DNA of 17,795 nucleotides. It comes from Promethearchaeia archaeon. Lineage in GTDB: Archaea > Asgardarchaeota > Lokiarchaeia > Sigyniarchaeales > SOKP01. The notes below the pieces were generated by a model, which was given only the letters and a program-made list of their open reading frames with translations, made no database searches and was not told the DNA's origin. Below are positions 320 to 17,795 of the stretch, piece by piece. The number at the start of each line of letters is the position of its first letter. Positions within the stretch are counted from its first letter, which is position 1. Location: the NCBI GenBank assembly GCA_046497275.1, contig JAWOFX010000179.1:1-17795 (forward strand), read 5' to 3'. A program made the translations under genes and the position numbers.

Positions 320-340
320 ATATGAATTAATGATATGTGA

Positions 341-499: not shown

Positions 500-553
500 G
501 TATACAAAAGAAAACTTATAATTAGGAATTCTTTTTTAGGAGAGATTGAAGAT

Positions 554-2263
554 ATGGATGAAGAAAATCAGCTAATAAATGGAGGAGATGTATTAATAAA
601 ATGCCTTTTGGAAGAAAATGTGAGATATATGTTTGGAATTCCAGGAGGTCAATTCTTGAACATGTATGATGCAATTTATCGATGGGGAAAAGAAAAGGGA
701 ATTGAAACGGTTTTATTCAGACATGAGCAAGCTGCAGCTCATGCAGCGGATGCATATTCACGAATAATTAATAAAATAGGTGTTTGCTTTGGAACTGTGG
801 GTCCCGGCGCACTTCATCTGATTCCTGGTGTGGGATGTGCGTGGGCAGATAATATACCTATGATAGCTATTGTCCCTCAAGTTGACTCTAAGTTTCAAGA
901 TCGTTTTATGCTCCAAGGAAATTTAGATCAAATCTCTTTGTTTAAACCTATCACTAAATATCAAAAAACAATACGTAATATTGAAGAAATTCCTGAAGTA
1001 GTACAAAAAGCTTTTCGAGAAGCCACTTCTGGTCGTCCAAGACCTGTACTCATAGAGATTTATGTTGATGCTTTTAAACAAGAAATTGAAAATGAAAGAA
1101 TTCAAATTCTAGCCCGAAATCAGTATAGAGCATTATCAAAACCAGGAATAGAAGATTCTTCCATAAAAAAGTCTTTAGAATTGCTCCTTAATGCTAAAAA
1201 ACCCTTGATTATCTCAGGCGGGGGACTAATGAGGGCAGAAGCTTGGGAGGAATTAAAAAAATTCGCAGAATACTTAAAAATTCCAGTAATAACATCAATG
1301 CGAGGTATCGGAACGATATCCAATGATAGTAGTTGTTTCTTAGGGTCAACTCTTGCAAATACTCCTATTCAATTAATAACTAATACAGATGTAATTTTAG
1401 CTCTTGGTTGTAAATTCTCCTATACAATGGGTTATGGAATTGAACCTTTCTGGAGAAACAGTCAAAAACTAATACAAGTAGATATCGATCCAACCATAAT
1501 TGGGCGACAAAAGCCAATTGAACTAGGAATAGTGGGAGATTGCAAAGTATTTTTGAGAAAAATTCTTGAAGAGCTCCAAAAAGTAAATCCGATTGAAAAA
1601 AGACCATGGTTAGAAGACCTTATTCAAATGAAGATGAAAAGTAATGAAAAATTAAGGAAAAAAACATATAAAGAAGAATCTCCGATATCTACAAGAAGAA
1701 TGGTTAGAGAAGTATATGAATTCATGGATGAGGATGCAATTCTTATTATAGACGGAGGAGAAATCGAAGCTTTTGCCCTAGAACAAATAGATTTATATAA
1801 ACCCAGAAAACCACTTTCTACTTTGATTGCCACAGGTATGGGACACTTAGGGGTATCAATCCCTTATGGTATCGGAGCTAAGCTAGCAGAACCAGATAAA
1901 CAAGTCATTTCTCTAACTGGTGATGGTTCATTTATGTTCAATGTCCAAGATTTAGAAACTGCGGTTCGATTAAACTTAGATAACCTAATATTTGTAGTTG
2001 CTAATAATAATTCTTGGGGTTCTATGAAATCATTGCAAAAACTTTCATTAAAAAAGAGATATATTGATGTAGATTTTAAAGGATTCAACCATGCCAAGTG
2101 TGCGGAAGGCTTTGAATGCTATGGAGAAATGGTTGAAGACCCGGATGATCTTAAAGATGCTCTCAAACGAGCGAAAGATTCAAAAAAACCAGGTGTTATA
2201 GATGTAGTAAATAAATGGGAAACGAGTGATACAACAAAATTATTAAATTCTGTGAGCCTATAA
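554..2263 (+). CDS. Thiamine diphosphate-dependent enzyme, acetolactate synthase-like superfamily (IlvB/HACL/benzaldehyde lyase-like), 569 aa
   Basis: N-terminal FGIPGG and RHEQAAAHAADAY (cofactor-activating Glu), central IISGGG domain, and C-terminal TPP motif GDGSF...NNNSWG. Confidence 0.9.
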   Translation: MDEENQLINGGDVLIKCLLEENVRYMFGIPGGQFLNMYDAIYRWGKEKGIETVLFRHEQAAAHAADAYSRIINKIGVCFGTVGPGALHLIPGVGCAWADNIPMIAIVPQVDSKFQDRFMLQGNLDQISLFKPITKYQKTIRNIEEIPEVVQKAFREATSGRPRPVLIEIYVDAFKQEIENERIQILARNQYRALSKPGIEDSSIKKSLELLLNAKKPLIISGGGLMRAEAWEELKKFAEYLKIPVITSMRGIGTISNDSSCFLGSTLANTPIQLITNTDVILALGCKFSYTMGYGIEPFWRNSQKLIQVDIDPTIIGRQKPIELGIVGDCKVFLRKILEELQKVNPIEKRPWLEDLIQMKMKSNEKLRKKTYKEESPISTRRMVREVYEFMDEDAILIIDGGEIEAFALEQIDLYKPRKPLSTLIATGMGHLGVSIPYGIGAKLAEPDKQVISLTGDGSFMFNVQDLETAVRLNLDNLIFVVANNNSWGSMKSLQKLSLKKRYIDVDFKGFNHAKCAEGFECYGEMVEDPDDLKDALKRAKDSKKPGVIDVVNKWETSDTTKLLNSVSL

Positions 2264-2303
2264 ATTCTTTATGAAAAACCAAAGAATCATAATGAAAGTT
2301 ATC

Positions 2304-2906
2304 CTATTTTTTTAATCGAAAGCGCAATAATCTGTCTTTATCCTCTTCAGCATAATCAATTCCAATTCTTTTTAGTGATTCGATCCTATTTTTATCAACT
2401 GATTCTCCTTTTGTATAATATAACTTGGGATCAGAACTACATGAGTCTGTTCCATTAAATTTTTGTTTTGTTATATCGAAAGCCATACAAAGTTTCCCCG
2501 GACCATCAACTAAATTCTTGTAATTTTTACCTATTTTAATTTGCCTATTTTTTTTCATCAAATCAATTCCTTCTACTGGATAGACCTCTCGGATAAGTAC
2601 TGCACAGGGTATCCCCTTCTCCTCCGTGACTACATTCAAGCAATGATACATCCCATAGATTAAATATATATAATGTGTTCCAGGAATTTTGTACATAATT
2701 TTGGTTCTTTCTGTCTTTTTATAATTATAAGAATGACACCCTTTATCATTAGGACCTAAATAAGCTTCAACTTCCGTAATTTTACCGATCATCTTACCAT
2801 TTTCTGTCTCTCGAACGATGTATCGGCCGATAAGATCTTTTGCTACTTGCTCAGTATTCCTCTTGAAAAAATTTCTAGAAAGTCTTTGTAAATTTTTTGC
2901 ATTCAT
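2304..2906 (-). CDS. mpg: 3-methyladenine DNA glycosylase (MPG/AAG family), 200 aa
   Basis: Motifs ITEVEAYLG, YIYLIYGMYHCLNVV, AVLIR, GPGKL and RIGI are characteristic of the MPG family. Confidence 0.93.
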   Translation of the reverse strand: MNAKNLQRLSRNFFKRNTEQVAKDLIGRYIVRETENGKMIGKITEVEAYLGPNDKGCHSYNYKKTERTKIMYKIPGTHYIYLIYGMYHCLNVVTEEKGIPCAVLIREVYPVEGIDLMKKNRQIKIGKNYKNLVDGPGKLCMAFDITKQKFNGTDSCSSDPKLYYTKGESVDKNRIESLKRIGIDYAEEDKDRLLRFRLKK

Positions 2907-2948
2907 AGAATCATATTGAATAATCTATTTATCTGACTAAATATTTAG
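2906..2948. repeat. Copy 2 of the ~40-bp intergenic element; overlaps the perfect 14-bp palindrome ACTAAATATTTAGT (2936-2949)
   Basis: Read directly from the sequence in the 85-bp divergent mpg/URO-D intergenic region. Confidence 0.6.
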
Positions 2949-2991
2949 TATAGAATAAAATAATAATTTTTATAATAGCTTGATTAATAAA

Positions 2992-4077
2992 ATGAATGCA
3001 CCAGAAAGAGTATTAACCACGATAGATCATAAAGAACCGGATAAAATCCCTGCTTGGGAAAGTGCTTTTACTAATAATACAATATCTAAATATTATGGAA
3101 TTGATCCGAAAAAAAAAGGATATAAATATGAATATGAGTTATTCCGCCGTATTGGTATAGATATTTGCGTATCAGCAGTATCTCTTTTTCCTCGAAAAAT
3201 GTTAAAAAGAGGAAAGGGATTTATTGATGAATATGGAAGAATAATGCGTTTTGAATATTATGAAAAAGATGGAACTGAAATAACGGGATATATTGGAGGT
3301 CATTTTAAAAGTTTTGAGGATTATGAAAGTTGGGAGAAACCTGATCCTCATTTACCGACTCGTTTGAGATCCTTTGAATTAGGCAGAGAAATTCAAAAAG
3401 AAATGAACAATGAAATTTTTTCCGTTCCCGCTACTGGGGCTTTAATGGAGTGTACCTGGGAGGGATTTGGATTAGAAACGTTTTCGAGAATTTTAAGCAA
3501 ACCAAAACAAGCAAAAAAGGTTTTTGATGATAGAGGTGAGTTCACATTAGAATTAGTTAAAATATTAGCCGAAAATGATGCTAAATTAGTTATCCTTTGG
3601 GACGATTATGGGTTTAAAAATGGATTATTTATGAGTCCTCGTTTATATCGAAAGTATGTATTCCCATGGATAAACCGAATTTGTGAAGCCGCACATAAGC
3701 GAGATTGTAAGATTTTATTACATTCAGATGGAGATTTGATGGAAATTTTTGAAGACATCGTTAAAAGTGGAGCAGATGTTATTAATCCTCTTGAACCTAC
3801 GACTGCGAATCCCGAATATGATATCTTTAAATTAAACGAGAAATACGGAGATAAAATTACTTTCTGCGGTAATGTTAGCCCAATAATGTTAGCAATGGGA
3901 AAAATTTCTGATATAGAACGATACTCTAAAAAATTAATTCGTGAAATTGCGCCTGGAGGAGGATATATTTTTAGTTCAGGTCATTCCATAAATCCAGCCG
4001 TCACGATTGATAGATTTGAAGCTATGCAAAATGTAAGAAGAAAATATGGAAAGTATCCGATAGAAGTCCCAGATTAA
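2992..4077 (+). CDS. Uroporphyrinogen decarboxylase (URO-D)/MtaA-CmuA family protein, function unknown
   Basis: N-terminal ERVLTTIDHKEPDKIP, WDDYG, LHSDG, INPLEP, FCGNV and APGGGYIFSSGHSI are typical of the URO-D-like TIM barrel. ATG at 2992 is preferred over TTG at 2980. Confidence 0.85.
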   Translation: MNAPERVLTTIDHKEPDKIPAWESAFTNNTISKYYGIDPKKKGYKYEYELFRRIGIDICVSAVSLFPRKMLKRGKGFIDEYGRIMRFEYYEKDGTEITGYIGGHFKSFEDYESWEKPDPHLPTRLRSFELGREIQKEMNNEIFSVPATGALMECTWEGFGLETFSRILSKPKQAKKVFDDRGEFTLELVKILAENDAKLVILWDDYGFKNGLFMSPRLYRKYVFPWINRICEAAHKRDCKILLHSDGDLMEIFEDIVKSGADVINPLEPTTANPEYDIFKLNEKYGDKITFCGNVSPIMLAMGKISDIERYSKKLIREIAPGGGYIFSSGHSINPAVTIDRFEAMQNVRRKYGKYPIEVPD

Positions 4078-4092
4078 TCTCAAAATTATACT

Positions 4093-4935
4093 TTACTTAG
4101 AATTTATTTTTTTTAGTTCATTCTTGAGGAATGATTCTAGTTTATCATTACATGCAACTAAAGGATATTTCAAATCCATTGAGAGAGATTGATTTAATTT
4201 ATCACCTTTGATAGTAAAGATATGACCACCTGCTTCTTTTATAATTAAATAACTGGCAGCCATATCAACAAGTCTCGTCCCTCTTCTAAAATCCATATAT
4301 CCGTCAATACTACCCTTAGCTAACAAGCAGAAACTTAATGCAATACTGCCCATCACACGTACACGATACAATTTTTTAAGAATGGGATGATATTTTCTAA
4401 TATTCTTTCGTAAACTCCATAAGTGAAAATCAATTTCAAAAATTAATTGATCTGAAAGAGACTTAGTTGAAACGGTTATTCTTTTATCGTTTAGAAAAGT
4501 ACCTCGGTTTTTCTCTGCCCAATATAAATCCTTAGTGGTGAGATCTAATATAACTGCCATCTTTATATCCTCTAATTTGGAACCTTCAGCATAAGCGATA
4601 GAGACACTAAAATATGGAATCCCGCGACTACAATTTGTAGATCCGTCAATTGGATCAACAATTAATTTTTTTTTGGATTTTTCGATATTTTCTTGATTTC
4701 CTATAAATTTTTCTCCCGTTTCTTCGCTAATTAGTAATATTTCTATTCCATTTTTTTCTAAATGATCGATGATAGTTTTTTCTGCCGCGACATCAATCTC
4801 CATAGAAACATCCCCACCAGCTCCTTTCTTAAGTTTTTTAGCTCCTTCTTCAGTGCCAATTAAGGGGGAAATTTCTTGGTACACTATCAAGGATAATTCC
4901 TTCAAAAAACTAATATCAATTTCTCTTGAGACCAT
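4093..4935 (-). CDS. suhB: Inositol monophosphatase / archaeal bifunctional FBPase-IMPase
   Basis: GAGGDVSMEIDVAAE, ISEE, VDPIDGSTN, RVMGSIAL and LVDMAAS. ATG at 4935 is preferred over the track start at 4980. Confidence 0.9.
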   Translation of the reverse strand: MVSREIDISFLKELSLIVYQEISPLIGTEEGAKKLKKGAGGDVSMEIDVAAEKTIIDHLEKNGIEILLISEETGEKFIGNQENIEKSKKKLIVDPIDGSTNCSRGIPYFSVSIAYAEGSKLEDIKMAVILDLTTKDLYWAEKNRGTFLNDKRITVSTKSLSDQLIFEIDFHLWSLRKNIRKYHPILKKLYRVRVMGSIALSFCLLAKGSIDGYMDFRRGTRLVDMAASYLIIKEAGGHIFTIKGDKLNQSLSMDLKYPLVACNDKLESFLKNELKKINSK

Positions 4936-5177
4936 AGTTAAATAATATGAGTGGATAATTTCCTTGCTGATAAACTGCAATGAAATGCTCGAAACTCAAT
5001 CTCTCGGAATCTATATTAGGTATTATAATTTTATCATCGTTTAAAACTTTTGTAAATGGGGTTCGTTTAGCCTTTCTGAATTAATAATTTTATTCTATTA
5101 TAATTTTGATTTTAATCTCAGCAATTTTCAATTAACATACTATTAAAATCAATTTGCATTATAATCAAATGTAAATT

Positions 5178-6566
5178 ATGTCTAATCTCGATTTCTTTTT
5201 TAATCCTAAATCTGTAGCGATTATCGGAGCTTCTGATACTATTAGATTTGGATTTACTACTACTAAATATCTTTTAAATTCAAAATTCAAGACATATCCA
5301 GTTCACTTAAATAAAGAAGAAATATTATGTCATAGAGCTTATAAAAATGTTAAAGATATTCCCGATGATATTGAGTTAGCAATATTATTAATAGGTAGTG
5401 AATACGTCCCACAAGCTATTAGAGATTGTATAGATAAAGGAGTGAAGGGGATAATTATAGAATCAGCTGGATTTGCAGAAACAGGAGTTAAAAAATATAT
5501 AGAGTTACAAGAGAATGTAAAGGATATGATTAAAGACTCCAAAATTCGAATAATTGGTCCTAACTGTGTTGGTGTCACAGATTTTCATAATAAATTTAGT
5601 ACTGCAGATGTAGAATTTAAGCGGGAAAAAGCGGGGGATATCTCAATTATCGCTCAGTCAGGAGTACTTGGTAATGTATTTATAGATTGGGGTAGCTCAC
5701 AATCTATCGGATTCGCTAAATCTATTACATTAGGTAATAAAATCGATGTAGATGAGGTAGATGTTCTTGACTATTTAAATAAGGATGATCACACTAAGAT
5801 AATTACGCTATATTTAGAAGGAACAAATAGGGGGAAAGAATTTGTTGATGTTTTAGGAAGAATGACTAAGCCCGTCTTGATTCTTAAGAATGGTCGAACA
5901 GAAATAGGTTCAAGAGCTGTTATAAGTCATACTAGCTCAATTGCGGGAAATGATAAAATCTATGATGCTGTTTTCAAACAAAATCCCATGGTTTTTAGAG
6001 TTTATGATTTCTATGAAATGTTTAACATAGCACATATTTTTGCTTCTCAACCAATAATAAAAGGCAAGAAGATTGCTATTATAACGGCTTCTGGTAGTTT
6101 AGGAATTTTAGCATGTGATGAATTAGTAGATAAAGGGTTATCACTTGCTGAATTAAAGGAAGAAACTAGGCAAAAAATTAAGAAGATCATACCGGATTAT
6201 GTTTCAATTGGTGGAACAATTGATTTGGGACCCTCAATGTTTCTTACTTTAAGCGACAGTCTTAAGGCAATATATAAGGACGAAAATGTTGATGCATTAC
6301 TCTTTATTTTTGCTATACCCAGATGGCCTTTAGAAAAATTCAATTTCACCTTCTCTCCACATTTTAGACTAATGAAACAATTATCGAAAAAATACCATAA
6401 ACCCATTATTTGTGTTTGTTTTGGATCTCGTTGGGTTTTTGAATATATAAATAATAATGCTTTTAAATTTGGGATCCCTGTTGTTGATAGAATAGAACAT
6501 GCTGTGAATGCGTTTAAAATGATGTATGAATATGAGATAAATGTTATTTCAAAAAAAATGGAATGA
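5178..6566 (+). CDS. NDP-forming acyl-CoA synthetase (acetate-CoA ligase) alpha subunit, CoA-binding, 462 aa
   Basis: FFNPKSVAIIGAS, ESAGFAE, RIIGPNCVG, AQSG, LGNKIDV, LYLEG and SHTSSIAG (phospho-His). No ATP-grasp domain. Confidence 0.88.
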   Translation: MSNLDFFFNPKSVAIIGASDTIRFGFTTTKYLLNSKFKTYPVHLNKEEILCHRAYKNVKDIPDDIELAILLIGSEYVPQAIRDCIDKGVKGIIIESAGFAETGVKKYIELQENVKDMIKDSKIRIIGPNCVGVTDFHNKFSTADVEFKREKAGDISIIAQSGVLGNVFIDWGSSQSIGFAKSITLGNKIDVDEVDVLDYLNKDDHTKIITLYLEGTNRGKEFVDVLGRMTKPVLILKNGRTEIGSRAVISHTSSIAGNDKIYDAVFKQNPMVFRVYDFYEMFNIAHIFASQPIIKGKKIAIITASGSLGILACDELVDKGLSLAELKEETRQKIKKIIPDYVSIGGTIDLGPSMFLTLSDSLKAIYKDENVDALLFIFAIPRWPLEKFNFTFSPHFRLMKQLSKKYHKPIICVCFGSRWVFEYINNNAFKFGIPVVDRIEHAVNAFKMMYEYEINVISKKME

Positions 6567-6615
6567 GGTTGTTTTATTAAAAATAATTATAATAAAATCA
6601 ATAATTAAGTTTTAT

Positions 6616-7854
6616 TTATTGAAATTCTTCTTCTTTTTTCACAATTTGCCTCAATTTTTCAGCATCGGTTTTTACAACTTCGATAAAACTATTCTCAAAA
6701 ACTAGCTTTGGACCACGTTTAAGCTCCATCCTACTATAGACTTTATCTATATTTTGAGAACTCAACCAATCCGAGACAAGGATACCTTTTCGCTTTTCTT
6801 TTTCGGCAAATTTATTTGTTAATACCTCTAATTTAGATAATTTTTGCTCCTCTAACTCTATTAATGCAAAATATGGTGCCTCTCCATACTTTTCATGTAT
6901 TTTTGATTCAAGTCCATTGTTATTTTCAAGCGGAATTGCCACTTTAGAGGTTTTCTTTTCTTGAGTGCGAGTGGTAATAACTATTTTGAAAATTTCGGGA
7001 AACTTATCCATAATTTCATTTGAAAGCTTTTTCTTTAATAAATCAACTTTAGAAAGTTCCATGTCCTTACTCAATTTTATATCAACTTCAAGAAAAATAT
7101 AACGCCCATATGCTCTGATTTCTATATTATCAATATCTTTAACTTTTGGGAAATTTTCAATAAGCTCAATTAATTCCGTTCTTTTCTCAAATTCTATTAC
7201 AGCGTCTAATAAAGTTTTAGTAGAGGTGAGAAATATATCATAACCTCCCTTAATAATAAAAAGAGCTATAACTAAACCAAATATAGAATCTAAAACAAAA
7301 ATTCCATAATACGCAGCAATAAAACCTATTAGTACAGTTGATGAGATAAAATTATCTAATAACTTTTCACTTGTCTCCGATTTAATTATTTCTGATCCTG
7401 ATTTTTTCTCTATCAATTTCAAATATATCGTAGTAGAAATAGAAATTAATAGTGAGATTCCCATTATGATTATTATAAACGGGGAAACTATTATGGTTTT
7501 TATTGAACCAGAAAAGAAATTTAAAATTTCACTAATAGATTCTCTGATTATTGTATAAGCAGTGAAAAAAATAAAGATTGAAATTACTAAGCTAATAATA
7601 TTTTCTAATCGATAATAACCATATGGAAACTTTTCGTTCGGTTTCTTGTTTACAAAAACAATTCCGATCAAAGATGCTATTACAATTATAATATCTGTTA
7701 AATTATCAAAAGCATCAGCTTGGAGCGCAAGGCTGTTTGTGAGCAGTCCAAATAATAATTTTAAAATAAATAGAGATAAATTAACCCCTAGTAAAAGAAA
7801 ATTAATAAAGATCGGTTTCTCATAGATTTTTAAATTATCTTCAGAATTTTCCAT
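6616..7854 (-). CDS. Cation diffusion facilitator (CDF) transporter with C-terminal NifB/NifX-like (FeMo-co biosynthesis family) domain
   Basis: SLALQADAFDNLTD (TM2), FPYGYYRLE, TM5 ...EKLLD, and a dimerisation domain (IRAYGRYIFLEVDI). It ends in a KVAIPLE...G..S.IHEKYGEAPYF domain. ATG at 7854 is preferred over GTG at 7866. Confidence 0.88.
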   Translation of the reverse strand: MENSEDNLKIYEKPIFINFLLLGVNLSLFILKLLFGLLTNSLALQADAFDNLTDIIIVIASLIGIVFVNKKPNEKFPYGYYRLENIISLVISIFIFFTAYTIIRESISEILNFFSGSIKTIIVSPFIIIIMGISLLISISTTIYLKLIEKKSGSEIIKSETSEKLLDNFISSTVLIGFIAAYYGIFVLDSIFGLVIALFIIKGGYDIFLTSTKTLLDAVIEFEKRTELIELIENFPKVKDIDNIEIRAYGRYIFLEVDIKLSKDMELSKVDLLKKKLSNEIMDKFPEIFKIVITTRTQEKKTSKVAIPLENNNGLESKIHEKYGEAPYFALIELEEQKLSKLEVLTNKFAEKEKRKGILVSDWLSSQNIDKVYSRMELKRGPKLVFENSFIEVVKTDAEKLRQIVKKEEEFQ

Positions 7855-7870
7855 AGATTTACACACACAC

Positions 7871-8587
7871 TCAAATTAAATTTTTTTCTATAATCCATTT
7901 CTCTACTTTAAAAAGCTGATAATTTTGGCGTTCTTGGACATTATAATTAGAATGAATGGTACTTTTTGGTATCCAAAACTCTTGTCCATTTTCTAAATCT
8001 ATCAATAGTGCTTTTTGGCTCTCAATTTTTATTTTCGCTCGAATCTCAACTAAATCAACTGAAACTCCATATTCCGTAGTTTCAACTACATGAAGGCCGT
8101 CTTGAGCATAAATTTGTTCAGAAAACACACGATATTCTTCTCGTTCATCTTTCTCCTTTTCTTCAAGTTTTTCCTTAAATGTACCGCTAGTTGCAAATTC
8201 AACTTTCTCTTTTGTTATATGGTCAAGAAGTAAAGTTAAAAACCTTGTACTTGGAAATCTAAACTTTTTTTCATAATCTCCAATCCTAAATACACAGACA
8301 TTTCTAGATTGATCCTCCCAACCCACATATATTTCTGTTTTATCATCTTGGAATACATGATATCCACGCCAATTTGCTAACCGTCTATTCAAGACTTCCA
8401 AAATACAAATGGTTTCTTCGATGCTTAATTTCACTGTTTTACCCTCTCCTTGAGAAGGTTTTTCCCAAATTCCCTCTTCTTTTCGCTTGATACATGTTAT
8501 AAATATATGTGGTAAATTTTTAGCGGGACTCTGGAAAATAACGCCAACCTCATGACCAAAAAAAGATTTATTATGTATATCAGTCAA
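7871..8587 (-). CDS. Hypothetical protein, 238 aa; possible Whirly/PC4-like nucleic-acid-binding N-terminal region plus a small C-terminal W-x-PKS domain
   Basis: Long open frame with a TTG start, probably co-transcribed with the CDF gene (16-bp gap to the ATG at 7854). The fold assignment is pattern-based only. Confidence 0.7.
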   Translation of the reverse strand: MTDIHNKSFFGHEVGVIFQSPAKNLPHIFITCIKRKEEGIWEKPSQGEGKTVKLSIEETICILEVLNRRLANWRGYHVFQDDKTEIYVGWEDQSRNVCVFRIGDYEKKFRFPSTRFLTLLLDHITKEKVEFATSGTFKEKLEEKEKDEREEYRVFSEQIYAQDGLHVVETTEYGVSVDLVEIRAKIKIESQKALLIDLENGQEFWIPKSTIHSNYNVQERQNYQLFKVEKWIIEKNLI

Positions 8588-8815
8588 TTTCTTAAAGTAA
8601 AATTATATGATTATTTAAATCCTTCTAATTATCTTATATACCAATAATAATTTAAGATCATTCAAAATTTTTTCAGACTTTTAGCAATTTCTATGAGAGA
8701 TTAAAAGATTATAAAAAAAACTATATATCTAAACGTAAATAATGATTTAGTATAAAACAAATTTTTCATATCTAAATTCCATTTATTTGGTAACTTTGAG
8801 AGGATTTTTCAAATA

Positions 8816-10150
8816 ATGACAAATTTATTTCTTCAAATTTTTGTGCTAATATGTTTTCTTGGTGTGGTTATTGTTCTTTTTTTTGAAGATAAGGATTATA
8901 TATACTTTACTTTCATCTTTATTGTGTTAGCCGGATTAGTAACTGCTATTTTTATTCCTGAAACACGTACTTTGGAATTTTATATCGAAAAAATTGAATG
9001 GGAAGTTATTTTTTTCTTAATTACTATGTTTACTATAGTCGAAATCCTTAAGGAAAATAAAGTATTTGATGAAATCGCTCGATTAGTGGTGGTTAAATAT
9101 CAAACAAATGTACGTAAAATGTTTTATGTTATATGTGTGATTTCTACATTATTAGCCACAATAGTTGAAGATTTGTCTGTCGCTATGATATTTGCGCCAA
9201 TCATCATCGTTGCGTGTCGAAAATTAAATATTAAACCTGCAGCATACTTACTTGGAATGACAATTTGCATAAATATTGCGGCGACTTTAACTCCATTTGG
9301 TTCTGCTCAAAATATCCTAATTACAAATGAATTTGATTTGGACATATTATGGTTTATTATTAATTTAGGCCCTTATTTTGTCATATCATTACTATCTACT
9401 CTTTTATTGTTAGATAAGTTTTCTTTGAAAAGAGATATTAATTTCTGTGCTACTCATACATGCCGACCTGAAGAAATTGAGGGGGATACATTATTAAATG
9501 AACCGAATATAAAAAAGCGGAAGTTTGCAATAAATCTAATAGGATTATTAATTTTTATTGTTTTACTTCTTATTGTTCCCGAAATTTACTTGGCAGGATT
9601 AATTGGTGCGCTAATATTCGTGTTAATAAATCCTATCAAAAATAAGGAAGGAAAGAAATCTTTATCCCTCTCAAAATATCTTTCCAATGTGGATTACAAA
9701 CTCATATACTTTTTTATAGCATTGTTTATTTTTGTGGGATTATTAGACGCAAATGGAACATTAATTATCATTGAAACGTTGATTTCGAATGTATCGGCTG
9801 AAAATGAGTTTATCTTGGCCATAATTATACTACTAAGCACTTCAATTTTAAGCGGTTTAATAGATAATACGCCCGTGACTATAATTTTCATTCCGATTGT
9901 AAGATTTTTATTTAAATTACCTGAATTTTATCTCGGTCCTCTTGTTGTCGCATTCATTCTGGGAATTAATCTGGGAGGAAACTTCTTACCACAAGGCTCA
10001 GCCGCAGATTTAGCAACTTTAGAAATCAGTAGAGATAATCAAGTTGAAGATATGTCTTATAAGCGACTATTTAAAGTAGGAGGATTATATGCGCTTTTTC
10101 ACGTTTTACTTGGGATTGGATATCTAGCAGTATTAGTGTTTCTTTTTTAA
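8816..10150 (+). CDS. Ion transporter (IT) superfamily permease, ArsB/NhaD/SLC13-like, 444 aa
   Basis: About 11-12 hydrophobic segments. Motifs IEWEVIFFLITM, AATLTPFGSAQN, LSGLIDNTP and NLGGNFLPQGSAA. Confidence 0.85.
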   Translation: MTNLFLQIFVLICFLGVVIVLFFEDKDYIYFTFIFIVLAGLVTAIFIPETRTLEFYIEKIEWEVIFFLITMFTIVEILKENKVFDEIARLVVVKYQTNVRKMFYVICVISTLLATIVEDLSVAMIFAPIIIVACRKLNIKPAAYLLGMTICINIAATLTPFGSAQNILITNEFDLDILWFIINLGPYFVISLLSTLLLLDKFSLKRDINFCATHTCRPEEIEGDTLLNEPNIKKRKFAINLIGLLIFIVLLLIVPEIYLAGLIGALIFVLINPIKNKEGKKSLSLSKYLSNVDYKLIYFFIALFIFVGLLDANGTLIIIETLISNVSAENEFILAIIILLSTSILSGLIDNTPVTIIFIPIVRFLFKLPEFYLGPLVVAFILGINLGGNFLPQGSAADLATLEISRDNQVEDMSYKRLFKVGGLYALFHVLLGIGYLAVLVFLF

Positions 10151-10196
10151 TCTAAAAAAAAAAATTATATGAGATTCTTATTTTCCCAAATACTAA

Positions 10197-10210
10197 TAGG
10201 ATTAATCCTA
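10197..10210. promoter_or_regulatory. Perfect 14-bp palindrome TAGGATTAATCCTA, candidate operator for the DUF3604 gene
   Basis: Read directly. It lies 14 bp upstream of the ATG at 10225 and ~26 bp downstream of an A11-TTATAT BRE/TATA-like element (10154-10170). Confidence 0.5.
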
Positions 10211-10224
10211 ACCTAATTTACAAT

Positions 10225-12555
10225 ATGATAGATTATTACTCTAAAGTAGAAAAATATGGATGTATTGATCTAAATCCTTCTAAAGAGCATATTGCTGGTA
10301 CTTTTGCCTCATTTGAGTTAATATATACCGCAGGTATTTATGGTATGGATGATCTGGGCGGATTAAAAATCTTATTTAGATATGCTTGTGACCAGAGTCC
10401 TCTTCAGATGAAGAAACCTAAAGCTGTGGGTTATACAACTGCGATTGCATCAAATGGAGCCGCAGTAGAATTATCATATTATTTAAGAGAAGGAGAACGA
10501 CCATGGTATAAAGTACTCAAGATTAGAATAGCTGGGAAGGGCTTAAAGGAGGGAGAAAAAATCATTATTAGAGTGGGAGATCAAAGGTTTGGATCTCCAG
10601 GAATTAGATTACAAACTTTCGTGGAACCAGAATTTGAATTCCGTACCTTAGTTGATGTGTTTTCTACTAATTTTTTTAAACCTATTAAAAGTCCTAAAAT
10701 TGCTCTTATCAGTGGAAAACCTACTAGATGGAAACTTATTTTACCAACATTACGTCGAGCAAAACAAACATTTACATTAAAAATACGTGCTGAAGATAAA
10801 TGGGGAAATCCCTCCAATCAAATAAATGGCAGATTTATTCTTAAATCAAATACTAAAATTGACGGATTACCATCCATTTTTAATTGGAAAATGGGAAATT
10901 ACTCGAAAATTATTGAAAATCTCTCAGTTGAACAAATAAAAAATAATGAATCCGTTATAAGAATTAAATTATTAGATGATACTAAAAATAATCTCACTAT
11001 TTCAAATCCCTTAGTGATTAAAAAAAACACTTCTCTTCTACATTTTTGGGGAGACATTCACGGTCAATCTCAGGAAACTATCGGGACGAATACAGCCCGA
11101 AGTTATTTTGAATTCGCTCGAGATTATGCATTTTTGGATGTTATAGGTCATCAAGCAAATGATTTCCAGATAACAATAAATTTATGGAAAAAAATCAATC
11201 GACTATCGGATGAGTTTAATCATCCAGGTAAGTTTATAACTCTTATTGGGTATGAATATTCCGCAAATACTTCGCTTGGCGGAGATAGAAATGTTTATTT
11301 TCTAGAACCACATCGACAGATTCATCGCTCTTCTCATGCATTAATTCAAGATAAAAGTGATCTTGATACTGATTGTCTCTCTGTCTCTGATTTATTTAGT
11401 GAACTTATTAAAGATAATCCAGATTATGAAAGATCTGTCTTAGTTATTGCCCATGCGGGGGGAAGATACGCAGATATTTTGAACTTTCATGATGGAAGAT
11501 TAGAAACTTCCATAGAGATTCATTCAGCTTGGGGCACATTTGAATGGCTTTTGTGGGATGCATTTGAGAAGAATTATAGAGTTGGAATTGTTGCTAATGG
11601 AGATGATCATAAAGGACGCCCAGGATCTGCATATCCTGGAATTTCTAAATTCGGGGCCTTAGGAGGACTGACATGTTTTTTAAGCGAGGATTTATCTCGA
11701 GAGGCTATTTTTAAAGCTCTCAAACGGCGACATCATTATGCAACAACTGGAGAGCGCATATTCCTAGATCTTATAGGGATTTTAAATTCTGATGGGGTTG
11801 TTTTTGAAAGAGATCCTGCTCTTTATCCTAATAAAACAGTAAATTTTGAAAAATCTAGAGAAACTCGCATGGGAGATATTGTTAAAATATTCAAAACAAA
11901 TAGTAAAACAGATTATAAGATCACTCTTAAAATTAATATAGAAGGGAGATCACCCATAGAAAGAATAGAAATTTTCAATGGAAATAAATTAATAGAAACT
12001 ATTAAGCCATTTTTGGGTAAGGAAAATAATAATAAAATAAATAATGAAGAATTTGAAAGAATAAGAATCTTATGGGAAGGAGCAGAATTTAGAGCACGTC
12101 GACGTAATGTAGAGTGGGTTGGTGCGGCTGAATTTGTCGAGAATACTATAAAAGAAATTAAATCGTTTAATTTCTGGAATGCCAGTGCTCCATTGCGTAG
12201 AGAGGGGCCAAATAAGGTATCTTGGAAGACTATGACATCTGGCAATTTTCAAGGATTTGATGTTATATTAACGGATAGAGAAAAGGGTGTCTTGAGGTTT
12301 AGATCATCTCAAATCAGTTTTGATTTGCTTATTTCTGAGATATCGATTCAAGAGAAAATATTTCAAGTCGGAGGATTGGGGAAAAGAGTACGTATATTTC
12401 GTCTTCCCAATATAAATAAGGAAGACTCTTGTTATTTGGAAAAACATTTTGAAATAGACCCTTTAAATAGAGAAGATGATCGTTTTTGGATCAAAATTAC
12501 ATTCGAAAATGGGCATCAAGCGTGGTCAAGCCCTATTTATATTATAAAAGAATAA
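10225..12555 (+). CDS. DUF3604-family PHP-like (amidohydrolase-fold) putative metallohydrolase, 776 aa
   Basis: WGDIHGQS, GHQAND, GYEYS, HAGGRYAD, EIHSAWG, NGDDHKGRPG, RRHHYATTG and C-terminal AWSSPIY. Confidence 0.75.
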   Translation: MIDYYSKVEKYGCIDLNPSKEHIAGTFASFELIYTAGIYGMDDLGGLKILFRYACDQSPLQMKKPKAVGYTTAIASNGAAVELSYYLREGERPWYKVLKIRIAGKGLKEGEKIIIRVGDQRFGSPGIRLQTFVEPEFEFRTLVDVFSTNFFKPIKSPKIALISGKPTRWKLILPTLRRAKQTFTLKIRAEDKWGNPSNQINGRFILKSNTKIDGLPSIFNWKMGNYSKIIENLSVEQIKNNESVIRIKLLDDTKNNLTISNPLVIKKNTSLLHFWGDIHGQSQETIGTNTARSYFEFARDYAFLDVIGHQANDFQITINLWKKINRLSDEFNHPGKFITLIGYEYSANTSLGGDRNVYFLEPHRQIHRSSHALIQDKSDLDTDCLSVSDLFSELIKDNPDYERSVLVIAHAGGRYADILNFHDGRLETSIEIHSAWGTFEWLLWDAFEKNYRVGIVANGDDHKGRPGSAYPGISKFGALGGLTCFLSEDLSREAIFKALKRRHHYATTGERIFLDLIGILNSDGVVFERDPALYPNKTVNFEKSRETRMGDIVKIFKTNSKTDYKITLKINIEGRSPIERIEIFNGNKLIETIKPFLGKENNNKINNEEFERIRILWEGAEFRARRRNVEWVGAAEFVENTIKEIKSFNFWNASAPLRREGPNKVSWKTMTSGNFQGFDVILTDREKGVLRFRSSQISFDLLISEISIQEKIFQVGGLGKRVRIFRLPNINKEDSCYLEKHFEIDPLNREDDRFWIKITFENGHQAWSSPIYIIKE

Positions 12556-12704
12556 TATTTGGTTTAGAAGGAATTGATTAATTAACCATAAATTTATATT
12601 TTTCCGTTACATATAGATTATACATCGAAATTAGTGTTTGAAATAATAATAAATAGGCGAATTTAAGTTTATTTTTAAATCACGGCAAATAGGTCTAATA
12701 TAAC

Positions 12705-14576
12705 ATGATTCCAAAACAAATGAGAGAGTTTTTATGGGAACACCTTCCCATCAGTGCTATTGAAAATCGGTTAGTCAAAGAACAAGGCAAATGTTATTTA
12801 GAGTTTGAAAGTAAAGATGAACATCTTCTTTCCCATATCGGGATAATTCGAGATAAATTAGGGCCTAATCTAGTTGTTTGCATGTGGGATGAAGAGTCAG
12901 AAATGGAAATTGGAGGTTATCTGATAGTTGATAATATCTCAATGGGAACACCTTCTATGGGGGGAATTAGAATGTTACCCGATCTGGTCCCCTCTGATAT
13001 TTATAATTTAGCAAGAGGAATGACATTAAAAAATTCTGCTGCAAACTTGGCATATGGAGGAGGTAAAGCAGGTATAGTCGCAAATAGAGAAATCTCTCCT
13101 CAAAAGCATAAAGAAATTATAAAGGGGTTTGCCCGATTAATTAAAAAATACCAGCATTTATATGTCCCAGGTCCTGATGTGGGAACAAATGATAAAGATA
13201 TGAAAACTATAGCGATAGAAAATGGCATAGATAGTACAGTATCAAAAACAGCAGATATGGGGGGAAATAGAATAGACGAATTAGGAGCCGCGGGAGGAGG
13301 AGTAGTAATCGCCCTCCAAACCCTTTTAGAAATCATGCCTCGATTAAGAGTATTGCCTCAATTCTCGAACCTTGAAATTCCCTCACAAGAGAATTTAGAT
13401 ATTATATTACAAGGATTTGGGGCTGTAGGTGCTCATGCAACACGCATTTTGAAAGAGAGAATACCTAAAGCGAAAGTTATCGGAATAAGTGATATTGAAG
13501 GATATTTACACAATAAAGATGGATTACCTGTCGAAGAATTATTTGATTTATGGACAGAAAAAACATTGGTGACAACAGAATATTTTAAATCTCATCTTAT
13601 TGATAAGGGTTATAAATTTCCTACTAAATTTTCAACAAACCCAGATAATTTATTACGAGAAGATGCTTTTTGTATGGTCCCAGCAGCGCCCGTATTCAAT
13701 TATCTTGGAGTAAGAAAATCAGAAAACTGTTCTATGACTGTGGAAAATATGGGAAAATGGCAATTAATTGTTGAAGGTGCTAACACCTATTCCCCAGATC
13801 CTAATAAAAAGGCTGGTAGAACTCGGATGGAACAGATTGTTTATCGTGAAAATGGTGTGATGATTGCTAATGATTATTTAGTAAACTCGGGGGGAGTTAT
13901 ATTCGCTGCTCAAGAACATATTATAAAAACACCCGATGAGCTACAAATACCAGAAGAGATGTTAGGGAATGAAGAGGCAGTTAATGATTGGTTAAATGAA
14001 CATGCCGAAGAATTCAAACTTTTATCCAAAAAACGTTTAGAAGCTGGAAGAGACGCGAGAGAAGGAGTAATCAGGCATAATATGATAGAATTAGTTGATA
14101 TGTTGACAGCTAACCAGGAACTTTTGCCGACTCCCGCAGCAGAAAGAATAAGTCTGAAACGTCTTGCCAAGAGTGAGCGTGAGAAAACTGCTGTGGACAT
14201 TATGGAAGACATTTCCATAATTGATATAGATAGCTCTATTCATGAAGCTGCATCCATGATAATAAAAGGTCCCAGTAATATGGTCGCTGTTCTCTCTGAT
14301 AAAAAATTGGTTGGTGTCATTACAGCATGGGATATAACTAAATCCATCGCAGATCGTAAATTTACATCAAAACTTGAGGAAATTATGACTAAAGATGTCA
14401 TTAGTGCCGCACCTAATCATGATCTTTTGTTGATAATTAGCAGATTAGAACAATATCAAATATCTGCAATGCCTGTTGTTGATAATTCCCAAGTTCTCGG
14501 TTATGTAAGTTCCGATCTAATAACTCAGCGGTATGTAGCCCGATTTATGCAAGATCAGGAATTTTTAAGATTATAA
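12705..14576 (+). CDS. Glu/Leu/Phe/Val-family amino-acid dehydrogenase fused to a C-terminal CBS pair, 623 aa
   Basis: MGGIRM, MTLK, YGGGK, PGPDVGT, GFGAVG Rossmann motif, EGAN and NSGGV. Two CBS repeats run from ~aa 495 (LVGVITAWD; ISAMPVVD). Confidence 0.9.
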   Translation: MIPKQMREFLWEHLPISAIENRLVKEQGKCYLEFESKDEHLLSHIGIIRDKLGPNLVVCMWDEESEMEIGGYLIVDNISMGTPSMGGIRMLPDLVPSDIYNLARGMTLKNSAANLAYGGGKAGIVANREISPQKHKEIIKGFARLIKKYQHLYVPGPDVGTNDKDMKTIAIENGIDSTVSKTADMGGNRIDELGAAGGGVVIALQTLLEIMPRLRVLPQFSNLEIPSQENLDIILQGFGAVGAHATRILKERIPKAKVIGISDIEGYLHNKDGLPVEELFDLWTEKTLVTTEYFKSHLIDKGYKFPTKFSTNPDNLLREDAFCMVPAAPVFNYLGVRKSENCSMTVENMGKWQLIVEGANTYSPDPNKKAGRTRMEQIVYRENGVMIANDYLVNSGGVIFAAQEHIIKTPDELQIPEEMLGNEEAVNDWLNEHAEEFKLLSKKRLEAGRDAREGVIRHNMIELVDMLTANQELLPTPAAERISLKRLAKSEREKTAVDIMEDISIIDIDSSIHEAASMIIKGPSNMVAVLSDKKLVGVITAWDITKSIADRKFTSKLEEIMTKDVISAAPNHDLLLIISRLEQYQISAMPVVDNSQVLGYVSSDLITQRYVARFMQDQEFLRL

Positions 14577-14593
14577 TTTTTTAATCTTTTTTT
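14577..14593 (+). terminator. T-rich tract after the dehydrogenase-CBS gene
   Basis: TTTTTTAATCTTTTTTT follows the TAA stop immediately. Confidence 0.4.
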
Positions 14594-14789
14594 AATGATC
14601 AATACCATAAAATAAGTTATTGATGCTTAAAGCACGATAATTCTAATTTTTTAAATTCTTAAAAATCTTTAGCACTCTTAGGAATTCCAATATATCAATT
14701 TAAGGAAAGAAAATAGATAATATTCGACTTAATTACTCTAAATATAAATGTAAAATTATAAAGCTTTTTTACTCATATTTAAGGAGAGG

Positions 14790-15095
14790 CTACATTAGTT
14801 CAATCTCGACTAGGACCGACTCGGGAATTTGAATCTTCATGATTAAATGCATGGACTTTTCGTTTGCTATTACCTCGAAGAGTCTTTTGTGGATCCGCAT
14901 CTCGAATTTAGCCCATGTAGCAGTTCCCTGACCCGAAGGAGATTTCCTGGTAGGGACTTCCAATCGTTTCGTCGGTAAAGGAATCGGTCCGTACTTCTTG
15001 ATGCCTTGTGTTTTACACACCGTTTCAATTTGCTCGCACACAGATTTAAGCGCTTCTAGGTTTATGGATGATAGTCGAATTCTCGCTTTTTGCAC
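14790..15095 (-). CDS. rpsJ: 30S ribosomal protein uS10 (archaeal type), 101 aa
   Basis: QKARIRLSS, GPIPLPTKRL, RKSP..G..TW..FEMRIHKRL and IQIPESVLVEIEL. GTG start with GGTG 7 nt upstream. Confidence 0.97.
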   Translation of the reverse strand: MQKARIRLSSINLEALKSVCEQIETVCKTQGIKKYGPIPLPTKRLEVPTRKSPSGQGTATWAKFEMRIHKRLFEVIANEKSMHLIMKIQIPESVLVEIELM

Positions 15096-15263
15096 GTTTC
15101 TGCACCAATGTATTTTTACTTAATATGAGTCATTTTAATTCATTCTATATAGCAATAAGTAATAACAATAATTATTATTCTTAAATAAATTTTTTTATAA
15201 TTCTCGATTACTCTAATGCCTTTCTAACATATTGGAAAAAAATATGAGGAAAAAGAAGATTTT

Positions 15264-16412
15264 TTGGATATATTTAAAAAACCTATGTTAAATTATTTAT
15301 ACATGATTTCGAATTTTTTAATATTATCCATCTCAATAACATTATTTATCCTTGTAGGAATCATTTTTCAAAAAAGCCGAAAATTTAAAACCGATATAAA
15401 GTATCTCATGTTCACCTTAATAAGCATTGCTATTGCCAATACGGCAGTAGGATTAAATTTTGATAATTCAATTCTTACATTGATAATGACAGCGTTCTTA
15501 CCATTAGGATTCTTATTTTTATTTTTTCATTATGAAGAAATTTCTCACCCAAGACCGAGATTAAGCGCATTAATAATCTTGTTTGGGTTATATATTCTTT
15601 TAATATCCTTCAAATTAATGATCCCTTTATATATGTGGCTAAATAATATCTCTTTTGATATTCCATATGTAGATTTAAGAGGATATAGTGATATGTTTAT
15701 CTACACTCTCTTTTGGATGTCTAATTTATTCCAGTCATTCATAATTTGTGGCGTCTTTCTTTTGGCTTTTTTAACGGTGATCAAGGTGCTTAAAGTAATT
15801 AAAATTAAGGCTATCATTATTGAATTAGTTGGTTTGATATTTTTAATCATTTATGGGTTGCTATACTTGATTCGAGATATCTTTTTCTATGAAACTGCTT
15901 ATGAGCTTTTAACCTCAATTGCTTTAGTATTCTCCTTAATAGGTCTCGTACTAATAATTTCCAATTTCATAGTCCATCCTGATTATCTCTATTTAATACC
16001 TTTTTCAATATTCAATTTCATGATTTTTAATGAGGGGGGGACTTCTTGTTATTTTAGGAAAGTGGAAGCATTGGATGAAGCTCAACCGCAAAAAAATATG
16101 GAACATTTAATGGCAGGAGCATTATCTGCAGTTTCGACAATGTTTAAGGAAGTTCTTGGAGCAGGAGCTAACATCCGTTATATAGATGCGGATGATTTCA
16201 TCATTTTAGTGACTTCTCTTCCGAAAAAAAAGGGCATTTTTGTAGTGATTTCTCGTGGAGAGGCTGCTCTCTTTAAGAAATCACTTATAAGATTTACTCG
16301 TAAATGGCCTATACAATTGTTAGATGAGATTAATGGAATGTTTGATTTAAATGAAATAAGTCCTAAAATTGATGAATTAATCAAAACTTCCTTTCCCTAT
16401 GTAGCTTTTTAA
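15264..16412 (+). CDS. Membrane protein with ~7 TM helices and a C-terminal longin-like domain
   Basis: Seven hydrophobic segments in aa ~10-240, then a soluble domain with a beta-beta-alpha-beta-beta-beta-alpha-alpha pattern (FMIFNEGG; LMAGALSAVSTMFKEV). The start could be TTG 15264 or ATG 15285. Confidence 0.7.
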   Translation: MDIFKKPMLNYLYMISNFLILSISITLFILVGIIFQKSRKFKTDIKYLMFTLISIAIANTAVGLNFDNSILTLIMTAFLPLGFLFLFFHYEEISHPRPRLSALIILFGLYILLISFKLMIPLYMWLNNISFDIPYVDLRGYSDMFIYTLFWMSNLFQSFIICGVFLLAFLTVIKVLKVIKIKAIIIELVGLIFLIIYGLLYLIRDIFFYETAYELLTSIALVFSLIGLVLIISNFIVHPDYLYLIPFSIFNFMIFNEGGTSCYFRKVEALDEAQPQKNMEHLMAGALSAVSTMFKEVLGAGANIRYIDADDFIILVTSLPKKKGIFVVISRGEAALFKKSLIRFTRKWPIQLLDEINGMFDLNEISPKIDELIKTSFPYVAF

Positions 16413-16420
16413 GCTATAAT

Positions 16421-17320
16421 TTAATAATAGGAATCGAGATTTACACCATATTTTTGATAATGGGCTTTTGTGAATTTCCAACTATTTTTATTATAATTTT
16501 TCAGAAATTCTTCATATTTTTGTGGTTCTCGCCCCTTTGTGGTCATACTTCGTAGGACTGCTTTATTATCATAGACATAAAGAAGATTATTTTTAATTCC
16601 TTCAATATATTTTTGGACTGCTTTCTCAGGAGACATTGCCTGACTTTGCATTTGTTTGAGAAGATCATCTGAAATCTCTTTTAATTTCTCTTCTCCTATG
16701 TCTTCTATAAGTTTCTCAGGGTATTTTACTTTACTTTTTAGATAGATATCTGTCTTTATATAGGATGGAATAATTACAGAGACATTAATATTAAAAATGC
16801 TAAGTTGCCCGAATAATGCTTCAGAAAGACCTACCACCGCAAATTTCGAATAAATATAAGGAGGAGGTTCCGTTAGACCTATAATTCCAGCTCCAGAAGC
16901 AACATTCACTATATACCCTTGTTGTCTTTCCATCAGATCTGGAAGAAATGTATGTATGGAATTGATTATTCCCCACAGATTTACATTTAATACTTTCTCC
17001 CAGTCCTCTAACGTGATTGCTAAGATATTTCCGCCGATGGCAATTCCAGCATTGTTAATTAATAAATCTAATTGATCGAATTTCGAGTAGAATTCTTTTT
17101 TTGCATTTTGATAATCTTTAATCTTGGTCACGTCGCACTTTATACCATATACATTAGCTTCTGAATCAGTTAGCTCTTTTATTACACTCTCTAAATTATG
17201 TAAGTCAATATCCACTAGAAAAAGATTCATTCCCTCTTTCGCAAGTATAGATGCAAATTCTCTTCCTATTCCATTTGCAGCTCCCGTAATAAAACAATTC
17301 CTATTTTTTAATTCTTTCAT
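16421..17320 (-). CDS. Classical short-chain dehydrogenase/reductase (SDR), probably NAD-preferring
   Basis: TGAANGIG, acidic VDID after beta-2, NNAG, NVASG and catalytic YIYSK. ATG at 17320, preceded by GAAGGT, is preferred over the track start at 17350. Confidence 0.92.
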   Translation of the reverse strand: MKELKNRNCFITGAANGIGREFASILAKEGMNLFLVDIDLHNLESVIKELTDSEANVYGIKCDVTKIKDYQNAKKEFYSKFDQLDLLINNAGIAIGGNILAITLEDWEKVLNVNLWGIINSIHTFLPDLMERQQGYIVNVASGAGIIGLTEPPPYIYSKFAVVGLSEALFGQLSIFNINVSVIIPSYIKTDIYLKSKVKYPEKLIEDIGEEKLKEISDDLLKQMQSQAMSPEKAVQKYIEGIKNNLLYVYDNKAVLRSMTTKGREPQKYEEFLKNYNKNSWKFTKAHYQKYGVNLDSYY

Positions 17321-17454
17321 AAAAAAACCTTCTAATAATAGATTATGCAAAATAATTGTTTATATAGATTTCGCGAGATTAATATATGAATATTATATTC
17401 ATAGAGGGATATTTAAATACTTGCGTTTACGATAACTATAAAATCAATAGCTTT

Positions 17455-17795
17455 TTAAAGGAGAAATTTATTTCCAAGATGAACATTTTCAAGATAATTT
17501 TGCGCCACTTCAAGACATTTATATGCTTGTTTTTTAGAAGTTATAGGTAAATCATACATTTGATAATCTGGATGGAAAACCAATAGAGAATAAGGAATTT
17601 TAGAATCAATTAAGCTTACAAATTTGGCAATTTTTTCGACCTCTTCATGATTAATATAACCTGGAACCAATAAAGTGCATCCACTCATCTCAGGTACACC
17701 ATTTCGTGTTCCGAAGTAATTTTCAGCTAAAAATTTGAAATTATCCAAGGTTCTTTTATTACTTACCCCACAAAGAGCATAATTAAGCTTCTCAT
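17455..17795 (-). CDS. Radical SAM protein, PFL-activase-like; C-terminal part only (the 5' end lies beyond the window)
   Basis: The frame stays open to the window edge (EKLNYALCGVSNKRTLDNF...). TLLVPGY, IPYSLLVFHPDY and ENVHLGN resemble the C-terminus of PflA-like radical SAM enzymes. The CxxxCxxC motif is not in the window. Confidence 0.7.
   Translation of the reverse strand, partial: EKLNYALCGVSNKRTLDNFKFLAENYFGTRNGVPEMSGCTLLVPGYINHEEVEKIAKFVSLIDSKIPYSLLVFHPDYQMYDLPITSKKQAYKCLEVAQNYLENVHLGNKFLL

Follow-up and report, generated by a model that had tools for sequence, protein, structure and literature searches.

What reaction would be carried out by a protein that keeps the scaffold of glutamate dehydrogenase (GDH) but has lost the residues that hold the side chain of glutamate? 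The question is raised by a gene on contig JAWOFX010000179.1 of a Promethearchaeia archaeon (Lokiarchaeia, Sigyniarchaeales; assembly GCA_046497275.1), positions 1 to 17,795 of which make up the stretch analysed here (the window). The gene, at 12705-14576 on the plus strand, encodes an amino-acid dehydrogenase of the ELFV (Glu/Leu/Phe/Val) superfamily that is fused to a C-terminal pair of CBS domains, and is referred to below as the ELFV-CBS gene. Judged from its sequence and predicted structure, the product is probably an active, allosterically controlled, NAD(P)-dependent dehydrogenase for a non-acidic amino acid, with a probability of roughly three in four, and the sequence comparisons support well that it is not a GDH. 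The long GDH-type scaffold, in which the alpha-carboxylate lysine, the catalytic lysine, the aspartate and the dinucleotide motif are intact, would catalyse the interconversion of a non-acidic 2-amino acid and 2-oxo acid, and the CBS pair would most likely set the activity of the enzyme by means of an adenosyl ligand.

Gene extent, domains and fold

The open reading frame (ORF) at 12705-14576 is complete and encodes 623 aa (translation 12705-14573). In the first-pass annotation, which was made from the letters and their reading frames, the gene had been placed at 12705-13910. Its start is retained here: the homologues, 613-627 aa long, align from residue 1 onwards over 97-100% of the query, in support of a start codon at 12705. 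The proposed end, in contrast, truncates the gene, and the missing extension comprises a helical linker and, as recognized by Pfam, a CBS pair. The features of the gene and its flanks, with residues numbered along the 623-aa product, are:

12556-12704, plus strand: upstream intergenic region, AT-rich (read from the sequence)
12669-12680: TATA-like element TTTATTTTTAAA, about 25-36 nt before the ATG (read from the sequence)
12705-14576, plus strand: ELFV amino-acid dehydrogenase, helical linker and CBS pair, the whole ORF (ORF list, homologues and AlphaFold2 model)
12939-13214, plus strand: substrate-binding domain, ELFV_dehydrog_N, residues 79-170 (Pfam, E = 7e-18)
12957-12959, plus strand: M85, in the substrate-binding domain
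13029-13031, plus strand: K109, in the substrate-binding domain
13065-13067, plus strand: K121, in the substrate-binding domain
13170-13172, plus strand: G156, in the substrate-binding domain
13176-13178, plus strand: D158, in the substrate-binding domain
13374-13919, plus strand: NAD(P)-binding domain, ELFV_dehydrog, residues 224-405, which also holds the invariant Y333 and Y362 (Pfam, E = 4e-17)
13413-13430, plus strand: GFGAVG, residues 237-242, in the NAD(P)-binding domain
13896-13898, plus strand: V398, in the NAD(P)-binding domain
13905-13907, plus strand: A401, in the NAD(P)-binding domain
13971-14180, plus strand: C-terminal helices of the GDH fold and long helical linker, about residues 423-492 (DSSP on the AlphaFold2 model)
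14181-14534, plus strand: CBS pair (Bateman module), about residues 493-610 (Pfam CBS, two stretches, 54 bits)
14577-14600, plus strand: T-rich runs directly 3' of the TAA stop codon (read from the sequence)

Both parts of the dehydrogenase pass the Pfam gathering cut-offs (PF02812, 65 bits against 25.3; PF00208, 63.3 bits against 23.4), and the AlphaFold2 model (pLDDT 92.2, pTM 0.85) has the two-domain fold of solved GDHs. Residues 3-490 of the model align over the whole length of hexameric GDHs of ~410 aa, such as those of Pyrobaculum islandicum (1v9l), Thermotoga maritima (1b26) and Arabidopsis (GDH1, 6yeh), at 19-23% identity, with E-values down to 3e-25 and TM-scores (by target) of 0.66-0.74. 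The architecture and the fold of the protein are established by these matches. With the hexameric GDHs the ELFV-CBS protein shares its catalytic residues (Lys/Lys/Asp) and a glycine-rich NAD(P) motif, but it has no equivalents of Lys89 and Ser380 (Clostridium symbiosum GDH numbering), and carries about 80 extra loop residues as well as the CBS pair. Matches to leucine (LeuDH) and phenylalanine dehydrogenases (PheDH) are weaker (E = 5e-15 or weaker) and mostly involve the N-domain. The leucine, valine and phenylalanine dehydrogenases (1leh, 3vpx and 1c1d) resemble the ELFV-CBS protein in having a hydrophobic residue at the Lys89 position, and in the non-acidic substrate proposed for it, but they are shorter (~350-365 aa), lack the N-terminal part of GDH and the CBS pair, and have Val or Leu where the ELFV-CBS family has Ala401. 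The three helices assigned by DSSP at residues 423-432, 434-469 and 475-492 of the model precede the CBS pair, which is predicted to form two beta-alpha-beta-beta-alpha units (493-610).

The upstream spacer, with its TATA-like element, might act as a promoter belonging to this gene, and the T-runs beyond the stop codon could be an archaeal terminator. The immediate neighbours are a DUF3604 gene upstream and the gene for ribosomal protein S10 downstream, the latter on the opposite strand, and taken together with the flanking signals this arrangement makes the ELFV-CBS gene look like its own transcription unit.

The side-chain pocket and the catalytic residues

Motif indexing of the translation located S84 and M85 in SMGGIR, K109 in MTLK, K121 in GGGK, G156 and D158 in VPGPD, and V398 and A401 in NSGGVIFA, and the positions listed in the first-pass annotation (which did not include S84 and V398) were correct. 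Residue equivalence was taken from HMMER alignments to three solved GDHs (1v9l, 1bvu and 6yeh), the C. symbiosum numbers being used as literature labels. As had been proposed, in all three alignments M85 takes the place of the Lys in the GDH KGG motif, G156 that of the Ala in PAPD and A401 that of the Ser in GGVxxS, and the K89 position is occupied by Met rather than by Lys or Arg. K109, K121 and D158 fall on the catalytic residues of GDH, GFGAVG (237-242) on its dinucleotide motif, and the invariant Asp191 is aligned with an Arg that GDHs conserve in their GGSxGR loop. In C. symbiosum GDH, Lys89 and Ser380 bind the gamma-carboxylate and give glutamate specificity (bioRxiv 10.1101/2024.12.26.630402), and LeuDH has Leu40 and Val294 at these two polar positions (PMC2723916), so that the literature confirms the roles given for both pairs in the first-pass annotation. 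The C. symbiosum pocket is further shaped by Ala163, Val377 and Gly90/91.

The pocket signature is a family-wide trait. Met occupies the K89 position in all but one of 120 close homologues, the exception having Leu; the PGPD motif was matched in 119, the remaining one lying outside the search pattern; and the Ala401-equivalent is Ala in all 120. Conservation across this many homologues argues against chance or sequencing error. In a set of 57 family proteins taken from metagenome and genome loci, 46 have Met at the K89 position, 8 have Leu, 1 has Thr and 1 has Ile, and one sequence is gapped there; Val398 and Ala401 are invariant, Lys109, Lys121, Gly156 and Asp158 are kept in all complete rows, and GFGAVG is kept in all complete family sequences. 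An unbiased comparison of the family with its Lys-bearing relatives again returned Ala401, together with invariant Ser180, Tyr333 and Tyr362. Proteins from different genera share ~67% identity, which indicates purifying selection on the gene.

Distant CBS-fused members (40-52% identity) read Leu-Gly-Val-Ala, and thus have Leu-Gly-Ala at the K89, A163 and S380 positions, the same residues as in the engineered K89L/A163G/S380A form of C. symbiosum GDH. This triple mutant, made by Wang et al. in 2001 (Eur J Biochem 268:5791), is reportedly a methionine/norleucine dehydrogenase. It has in common with the ELFV-CBS protein a GDH-type scaffold and a hydrophobic-Gly-Ala set at the three pocket positions, but the ELFV-CBS protein is natural, is ~20-25% identical to GDHs, and has insertions, a CBS pair and further family-wide invariant changes (Asp191, Tyr333, Tyr362). 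Glycine at the Ala163 position is also the PheDH state, and favours bulky side chains in PheDH and valine dehydrogenase (ValDH). Since the hydrophobic-Gly-Ala pattern is common in unrelated, uncharacterised ELFV proteins of ~370 aa, it is not a specific mark of a methionine enzyme.

The first-pass annotation had concluded that the protein is not a GDH, and this is upheld by several observations: both gamma-carboxylate ligands are replaced throughout the family, an Asp stands opposite the GDH Arg, scores against the NCBIfam GDH equivalogs are low (80.1 bits against a cut-off of 620 for GdhB; 75.7 bits against 750 for GdhA_Arch), and the genome contains two canonical GDHs. From Met or Leu and Ala at the Lys89 and Ser380 positions, and Gly in place of the pocket Ala, we infer a non-acidic 2-amino acid/2-oxo acid as the substrate pair, and not glutamate.

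Five ELFV paralogues are carried by the genome. The two canonical GDH genes are arranged in tandem (421 and 416 aa; locus L003, 952-3492, plus strand, contig C167) and retain the Lys/Ala/Ser pocket, and the divergence of the ELFV-CBS protein from them is established. A third GDH copy, which is partial, lies on contig C50. Lysine is likewise missing from the K89 position of a 399-aa paralogue (locus L004, 1465-2661, minus strand, contig C43), which has Ala there and Gly at the Ala163 position; this protein has a divergent GE-ILAI motif, falls in a separate clade with P0247 and is not a GDH. A phylogeny of homologues, proposed earlier as a check on the M/G/A signature, placed the CBS-fused M/L-G-A proteins in one long-stemmed clade (SH-aLRT 100) and the Lys-bearing proteins on a separate side of the tree (SH-aLRT 95). 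The nearest non-fused relatives have Ile/Leu-Gly-Val-Ala/Cys/Gly and match no NCBIfam equivalog.

The CBS pair, distribution and gene partners

The best solved match to the CBS pair is MJ0100 (PDB 3kpb/3kpc; E = 2e-15, ~41% identity over 100 residues), which binds, and is regulated by, both S-adenosylmethionine (SAM) and methylthioadenosine (MTA) (PMC13381585). In MJ0100 the pair is also a regulatory module, that of an L-aspartate-semialdehyde sulfurtransferase (homocysteine synthesis), but it sits on a different catalytic domain, and the ligand of the ELFV-CBS protein is putative; by analogy, SAM or MTA is the best guess. Within the genome, the closest CBS pair belongs to its own HcyBio+CBS protein, which is 32% identical to the ELFV-CBS module. 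These relatives point to sulfur-amino-acid regulation as a lead, and nothing stronger.

A survey of 301 genomes of the phylum, 68 from the GTDB family of the window and 233 from 29 other families, found the ELFV-CBS gene in 52 of the 68 (four genera) and in none of the 233, one of which, from the sister family, is a single-contig genome of 4.4 Mb. Given this single-family distribution, the NCBI labels Thor, Hod, Hermod and Loki on homologues must be loose. Labels of the family clusters in the ESM Atlas are mostly bacterial, with Chloroflexota the commonest phylum, and a sigma-54 activator is encoded on the same contig as one 63%-identical member. In the family tree, which is unrooted, the Asgard sequences form a clade within metagenome sequences, and this suggests a transfer between bacteria and one Asgard family. 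The proposed fit with the fermentation of amino acids by Lokiarchaeia has no specific support, as the gene is found in one GTDB family and without conserved fermentation-gene neighbours.

In 20 non-Asgard loci of bacterial type the ELFV-CBS gene is adjoined, on the same strand, by a gene for an uncharacterised protein of 420 aa, designated U420, and in nine loci a PanB gene (Pfam E = 3e-100) stands beside this pair. The same block includes an Lrp/AsnC regulator in four loci and a GlmS-like gene in five, and in one locus the order is rearranged with the PanB-U420-ELFV-CBS trio kept. At least five deep lineages of the family have U420 next to the ELFV-CBS gene, and the derived clade to which the Asgard sequences belong has lost this adjacency. 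The genome of the window carries a 62%-identical U420 orthologue elsewhere (426 aa; locus L178, 1498-2778, minus strand, corresponding to contig C44, 122360-123637). U420 has no match in Pfam or NCBIfam, and a profile search of PDB sequences was also empty; it has more than 8000 homologues, all annotated as "hypothetical", and its sequences in Asgard archaea and bacteria are 57-80% identical. The predicted structure has an N-terminal helical domain and a TIM barrel, and fold searches matched it to nothing more specific than TIM barrels in general (Z up to 12.8), without indicating a clear family. U420 is present in 172 of the 301 surveyed genomes.

In the window's genome, a gene fusing a DHDPS-family aldolase to Fae (formaldehyde-activating enzyme) lies 20 bp downstream of U420 (L178, 3-1478, minus strand), and U420 is paired with DHDPS-Fae in 11 of 12 related loci. 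Branched-chain aminotransferase (BCAT), IlvD, an ApbA-type reductase and phosphopantothenate synthetase are all encoded by this genome, and PanB was not found in it. The idea that DHDPS-Fae substitutes for PanB was rejected, because PanB is present in 20 of 22 genomes of Asgard genus g2 and 25 of 28 of genus g5, which also carry U420; the 11 U420 loci with confirmed DHDPS-Fae include PanB-positive g5 genomes. A role for U420 as ketopantoate reductase is unsupported, the ApbA-type reductase being encoded beside the phosphopantothenate synthetase.

Gene surroundings differ among the Asgard carriers. In the lineage of the window a CitMHS transporter gene lies upstream and S10 downstream, and in the window itself the DUF3604 gene (776 aa; 10225-12555, plus strand) is between CitMHS and the ELFV-CBS gene; it is not at the matching place in an 85%-identical locus (L015), which suggests an insertion in the window's lineage. 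The gene at 5178-6566 (plus strand) encodes a protein like the alpha part of ADP-forming acyl-CoA synthetase (CoA_binding, Succ_CoA_lig, Ligase_CoA_2), a typical fermentation enzyme; it is not kept beside the dehydrogenase gene in L015. In genera g2 and g5 (three contigs) the ELFV-CBS gene lies between Pterin_bind/DUF4346 and a cofG/H-like, RibD_C, amidohydrolase and GCHY-1 block. In loci L011, L012 and L013 (~4800-15100) the block consists of DUF1464, Pterin_bind+DUF4346, two cofG/H-like radical SAM genes, RibD_C, amidohydrolase and GCHY-1 of the MptA/FolE2 type, and is adjoined by the ubiquitin-system-like genes JAB, UQ_con and ThiF. This pterin/cofactor synteny was discounted as functional evidence, as its carriers are one GTDB family and the neighbours in the window's lineage differ. 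No methionine-pathway gene is a conserved neighbour among the examined Asgard and non-Asgard loci. In one lineage a 355-aa protein without a Pfam match is encoded directly downstream of the ELFV-CBS gene (L090, 10486-11550, plus strand), and it weakly matches the short archaeal-type methionine synthase model PRK00957 (E = 2e-7). At Rfam gathering scores there were no riboswitches in the window or in eight operon loci, and no Rfam family across window positions 1-17795, including 9-323, which had been proposed as signal recognition particle RNA.

Candidate substrates and significance

We infer catalysis, the loss of glutamate specificity and allosteric control from the sequence, and some points weigh against this account of a regulated dehydrogenase for a non-acidic amino acid. 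The invariant Asp191, Tyr333, Tyr362 and Ser180 may line the pocket and would then make it polar. Some glutamate activity can remain in LeuDH-type enzymes (PMC12181280), so that loss of Lys89 is no proof of zero glutamate turnover. The putative ligand of the CBS pair is drawn solely from the ~41% identical relative, and no paper on the ELFV-CBS fusion family or its biochemistry was found in the literature searched. A GDH paralogue after all, or a catalytically dead regulatory protein, would agree with the database annotation (glutamate dehydrogenase) and with GDHs being the best solved relatives; either is highly improbable, given that both gamma-carboxylate ligands are gone, that Asp is opposite the GDH Arg and that the genome has canonical GDHs, and, for a dead protein, that all catalytic residues are kept under strong constraint.

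If the ELFV-CBS protein is a dehydrogenase for a non-acidic substrate, the candidates are methionine or another straight-chain amino acid, valine/2-oxoisovalerate or a pantoate-related acid, aromatic amino acids, homoserine and lysine. The analogy of the pocket and the CBS relative favour the straight chains, and a natural dehydrogenase for L-methionine, norleucine or norvaline, possibly gated by SAM or MTA, was the substrate first suggested for the protein. Leu/Met-Gly-Ala occupies exactly the three positions changed in the engineered enzyme, the basal members having Leu-Gly-Ala; the GDH scaffold with Val398 and Gly86/Gly87 could retain a narrow, linear pocket; the kinship of the CBS pair to that of a SAM/MTA-regulated homocysteine-synthesis enzyme is mildly supportive; and one lineage has the weakly MetE-like gene downstream. 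This assignment is nevertheless doubtful, because the conserved partners are PanB and U420 and not methionine-pathway genes, the same residue pattern recurs in many unrelated ~370-aa ELFV proteins, 41% identity is too low to read a CBS ligand, and Gly at the Ala163 position competes, through its association with bulky side chains. Nothing relevant on a natural methionine dehydrogenase was found in the literature searched. The conserved PanB-U420 operon instead favours 2-oxoisovalerate or a pantoate-related acid, that is, a valine/2-oxoisovalerate or ketopantoate-related dehydrogenase that works with PanB and U420 in a pantoate (cofactor-related) pathway. Such a role is tentatively possible: the adjacency of U420 recurs in deep lineages, the window's genome keeps an orthologue, and genera of the Asgard family that lack the ELFV-CBS gene also lack U420. 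Gly156 and Ala401, however, widen the pocket relative to Ala113 and Val294 of LeuDH/ValDH, which is unfavourable to the small valine; with BCAT and IlvD the genome would not need a valine dehydrogenase, and it has no PanB; and U420, of uncharacterised function, is far commoner than the ELFV-CBS gene (172 against 53 of 301 genomes), and so independent of it.

In view of the wider pocket and of the invariant Asp and Tyr residues, substrates that are aromatic, hydroxylated or basic could also be accommodated, and a side chain that is aromatic or has a polar or cationic end (homoserine/4-hydroxy-2-oxobutanoate, lysine/ornithine, tyrosine/phenylalanine) may be proposed on the basis of Asp191 opposite the GDH Arg, of Tyr333, Tyr362 and Ser180, which set the family apart from its Lys-bearing relatives, and of the PheDH-like glycine. 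The FO-synthase-like radical SAM and pterin genes beside the gene in g2 and g5, and the pairing of Asgard U420 with DHDPS-Fae, suggestive of aldehyde and 2-oxo-acid chemistry, could be read in the same direction. That these four residues line the pocket is presumed, however, and the Asgard synteny is confined to one family and may be inherited gene order, so that substrates of this kind seem rather unlikely. More speculative, and improbable as it stands, is that ELFV-CBS, U420 and PanB form an undescribed three-enzyme route, in which a C1-extended 2-oxo acid would be led to an unusual amino acid or into methionine/homoserine metabolism under SAM/MTA-type control, with the dehydrogenase of the Lokiarchaeia family being derived from bacteria.

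The ELFV-CBS protein is a known kind of enzyme in a CBS-fused form that is without description in the literature searched. Enzymes of the ELFV type are used for making non-canonical amino acids, and as scaffolds for amine dehydrogenases, and a natural Leu/Met-Gly-Ala pocket on a GDH scaffold, with a predicted allosteric sensor built in, is of interest for enzymology and biocatalysis. The pairing of U420 with the ELFV-CBS gene offers a concrete route to the function of a very large, unannotated TIM-barrel family. The database label "glutamate dehydrogenase" on ELFV-CBS proteins is very probably wrong, and if taken at face value it would mislead attempts to reconstruct the metabolism of Asgard archaea and of sediment-dwelling bacteria, Chloroflexota for example.

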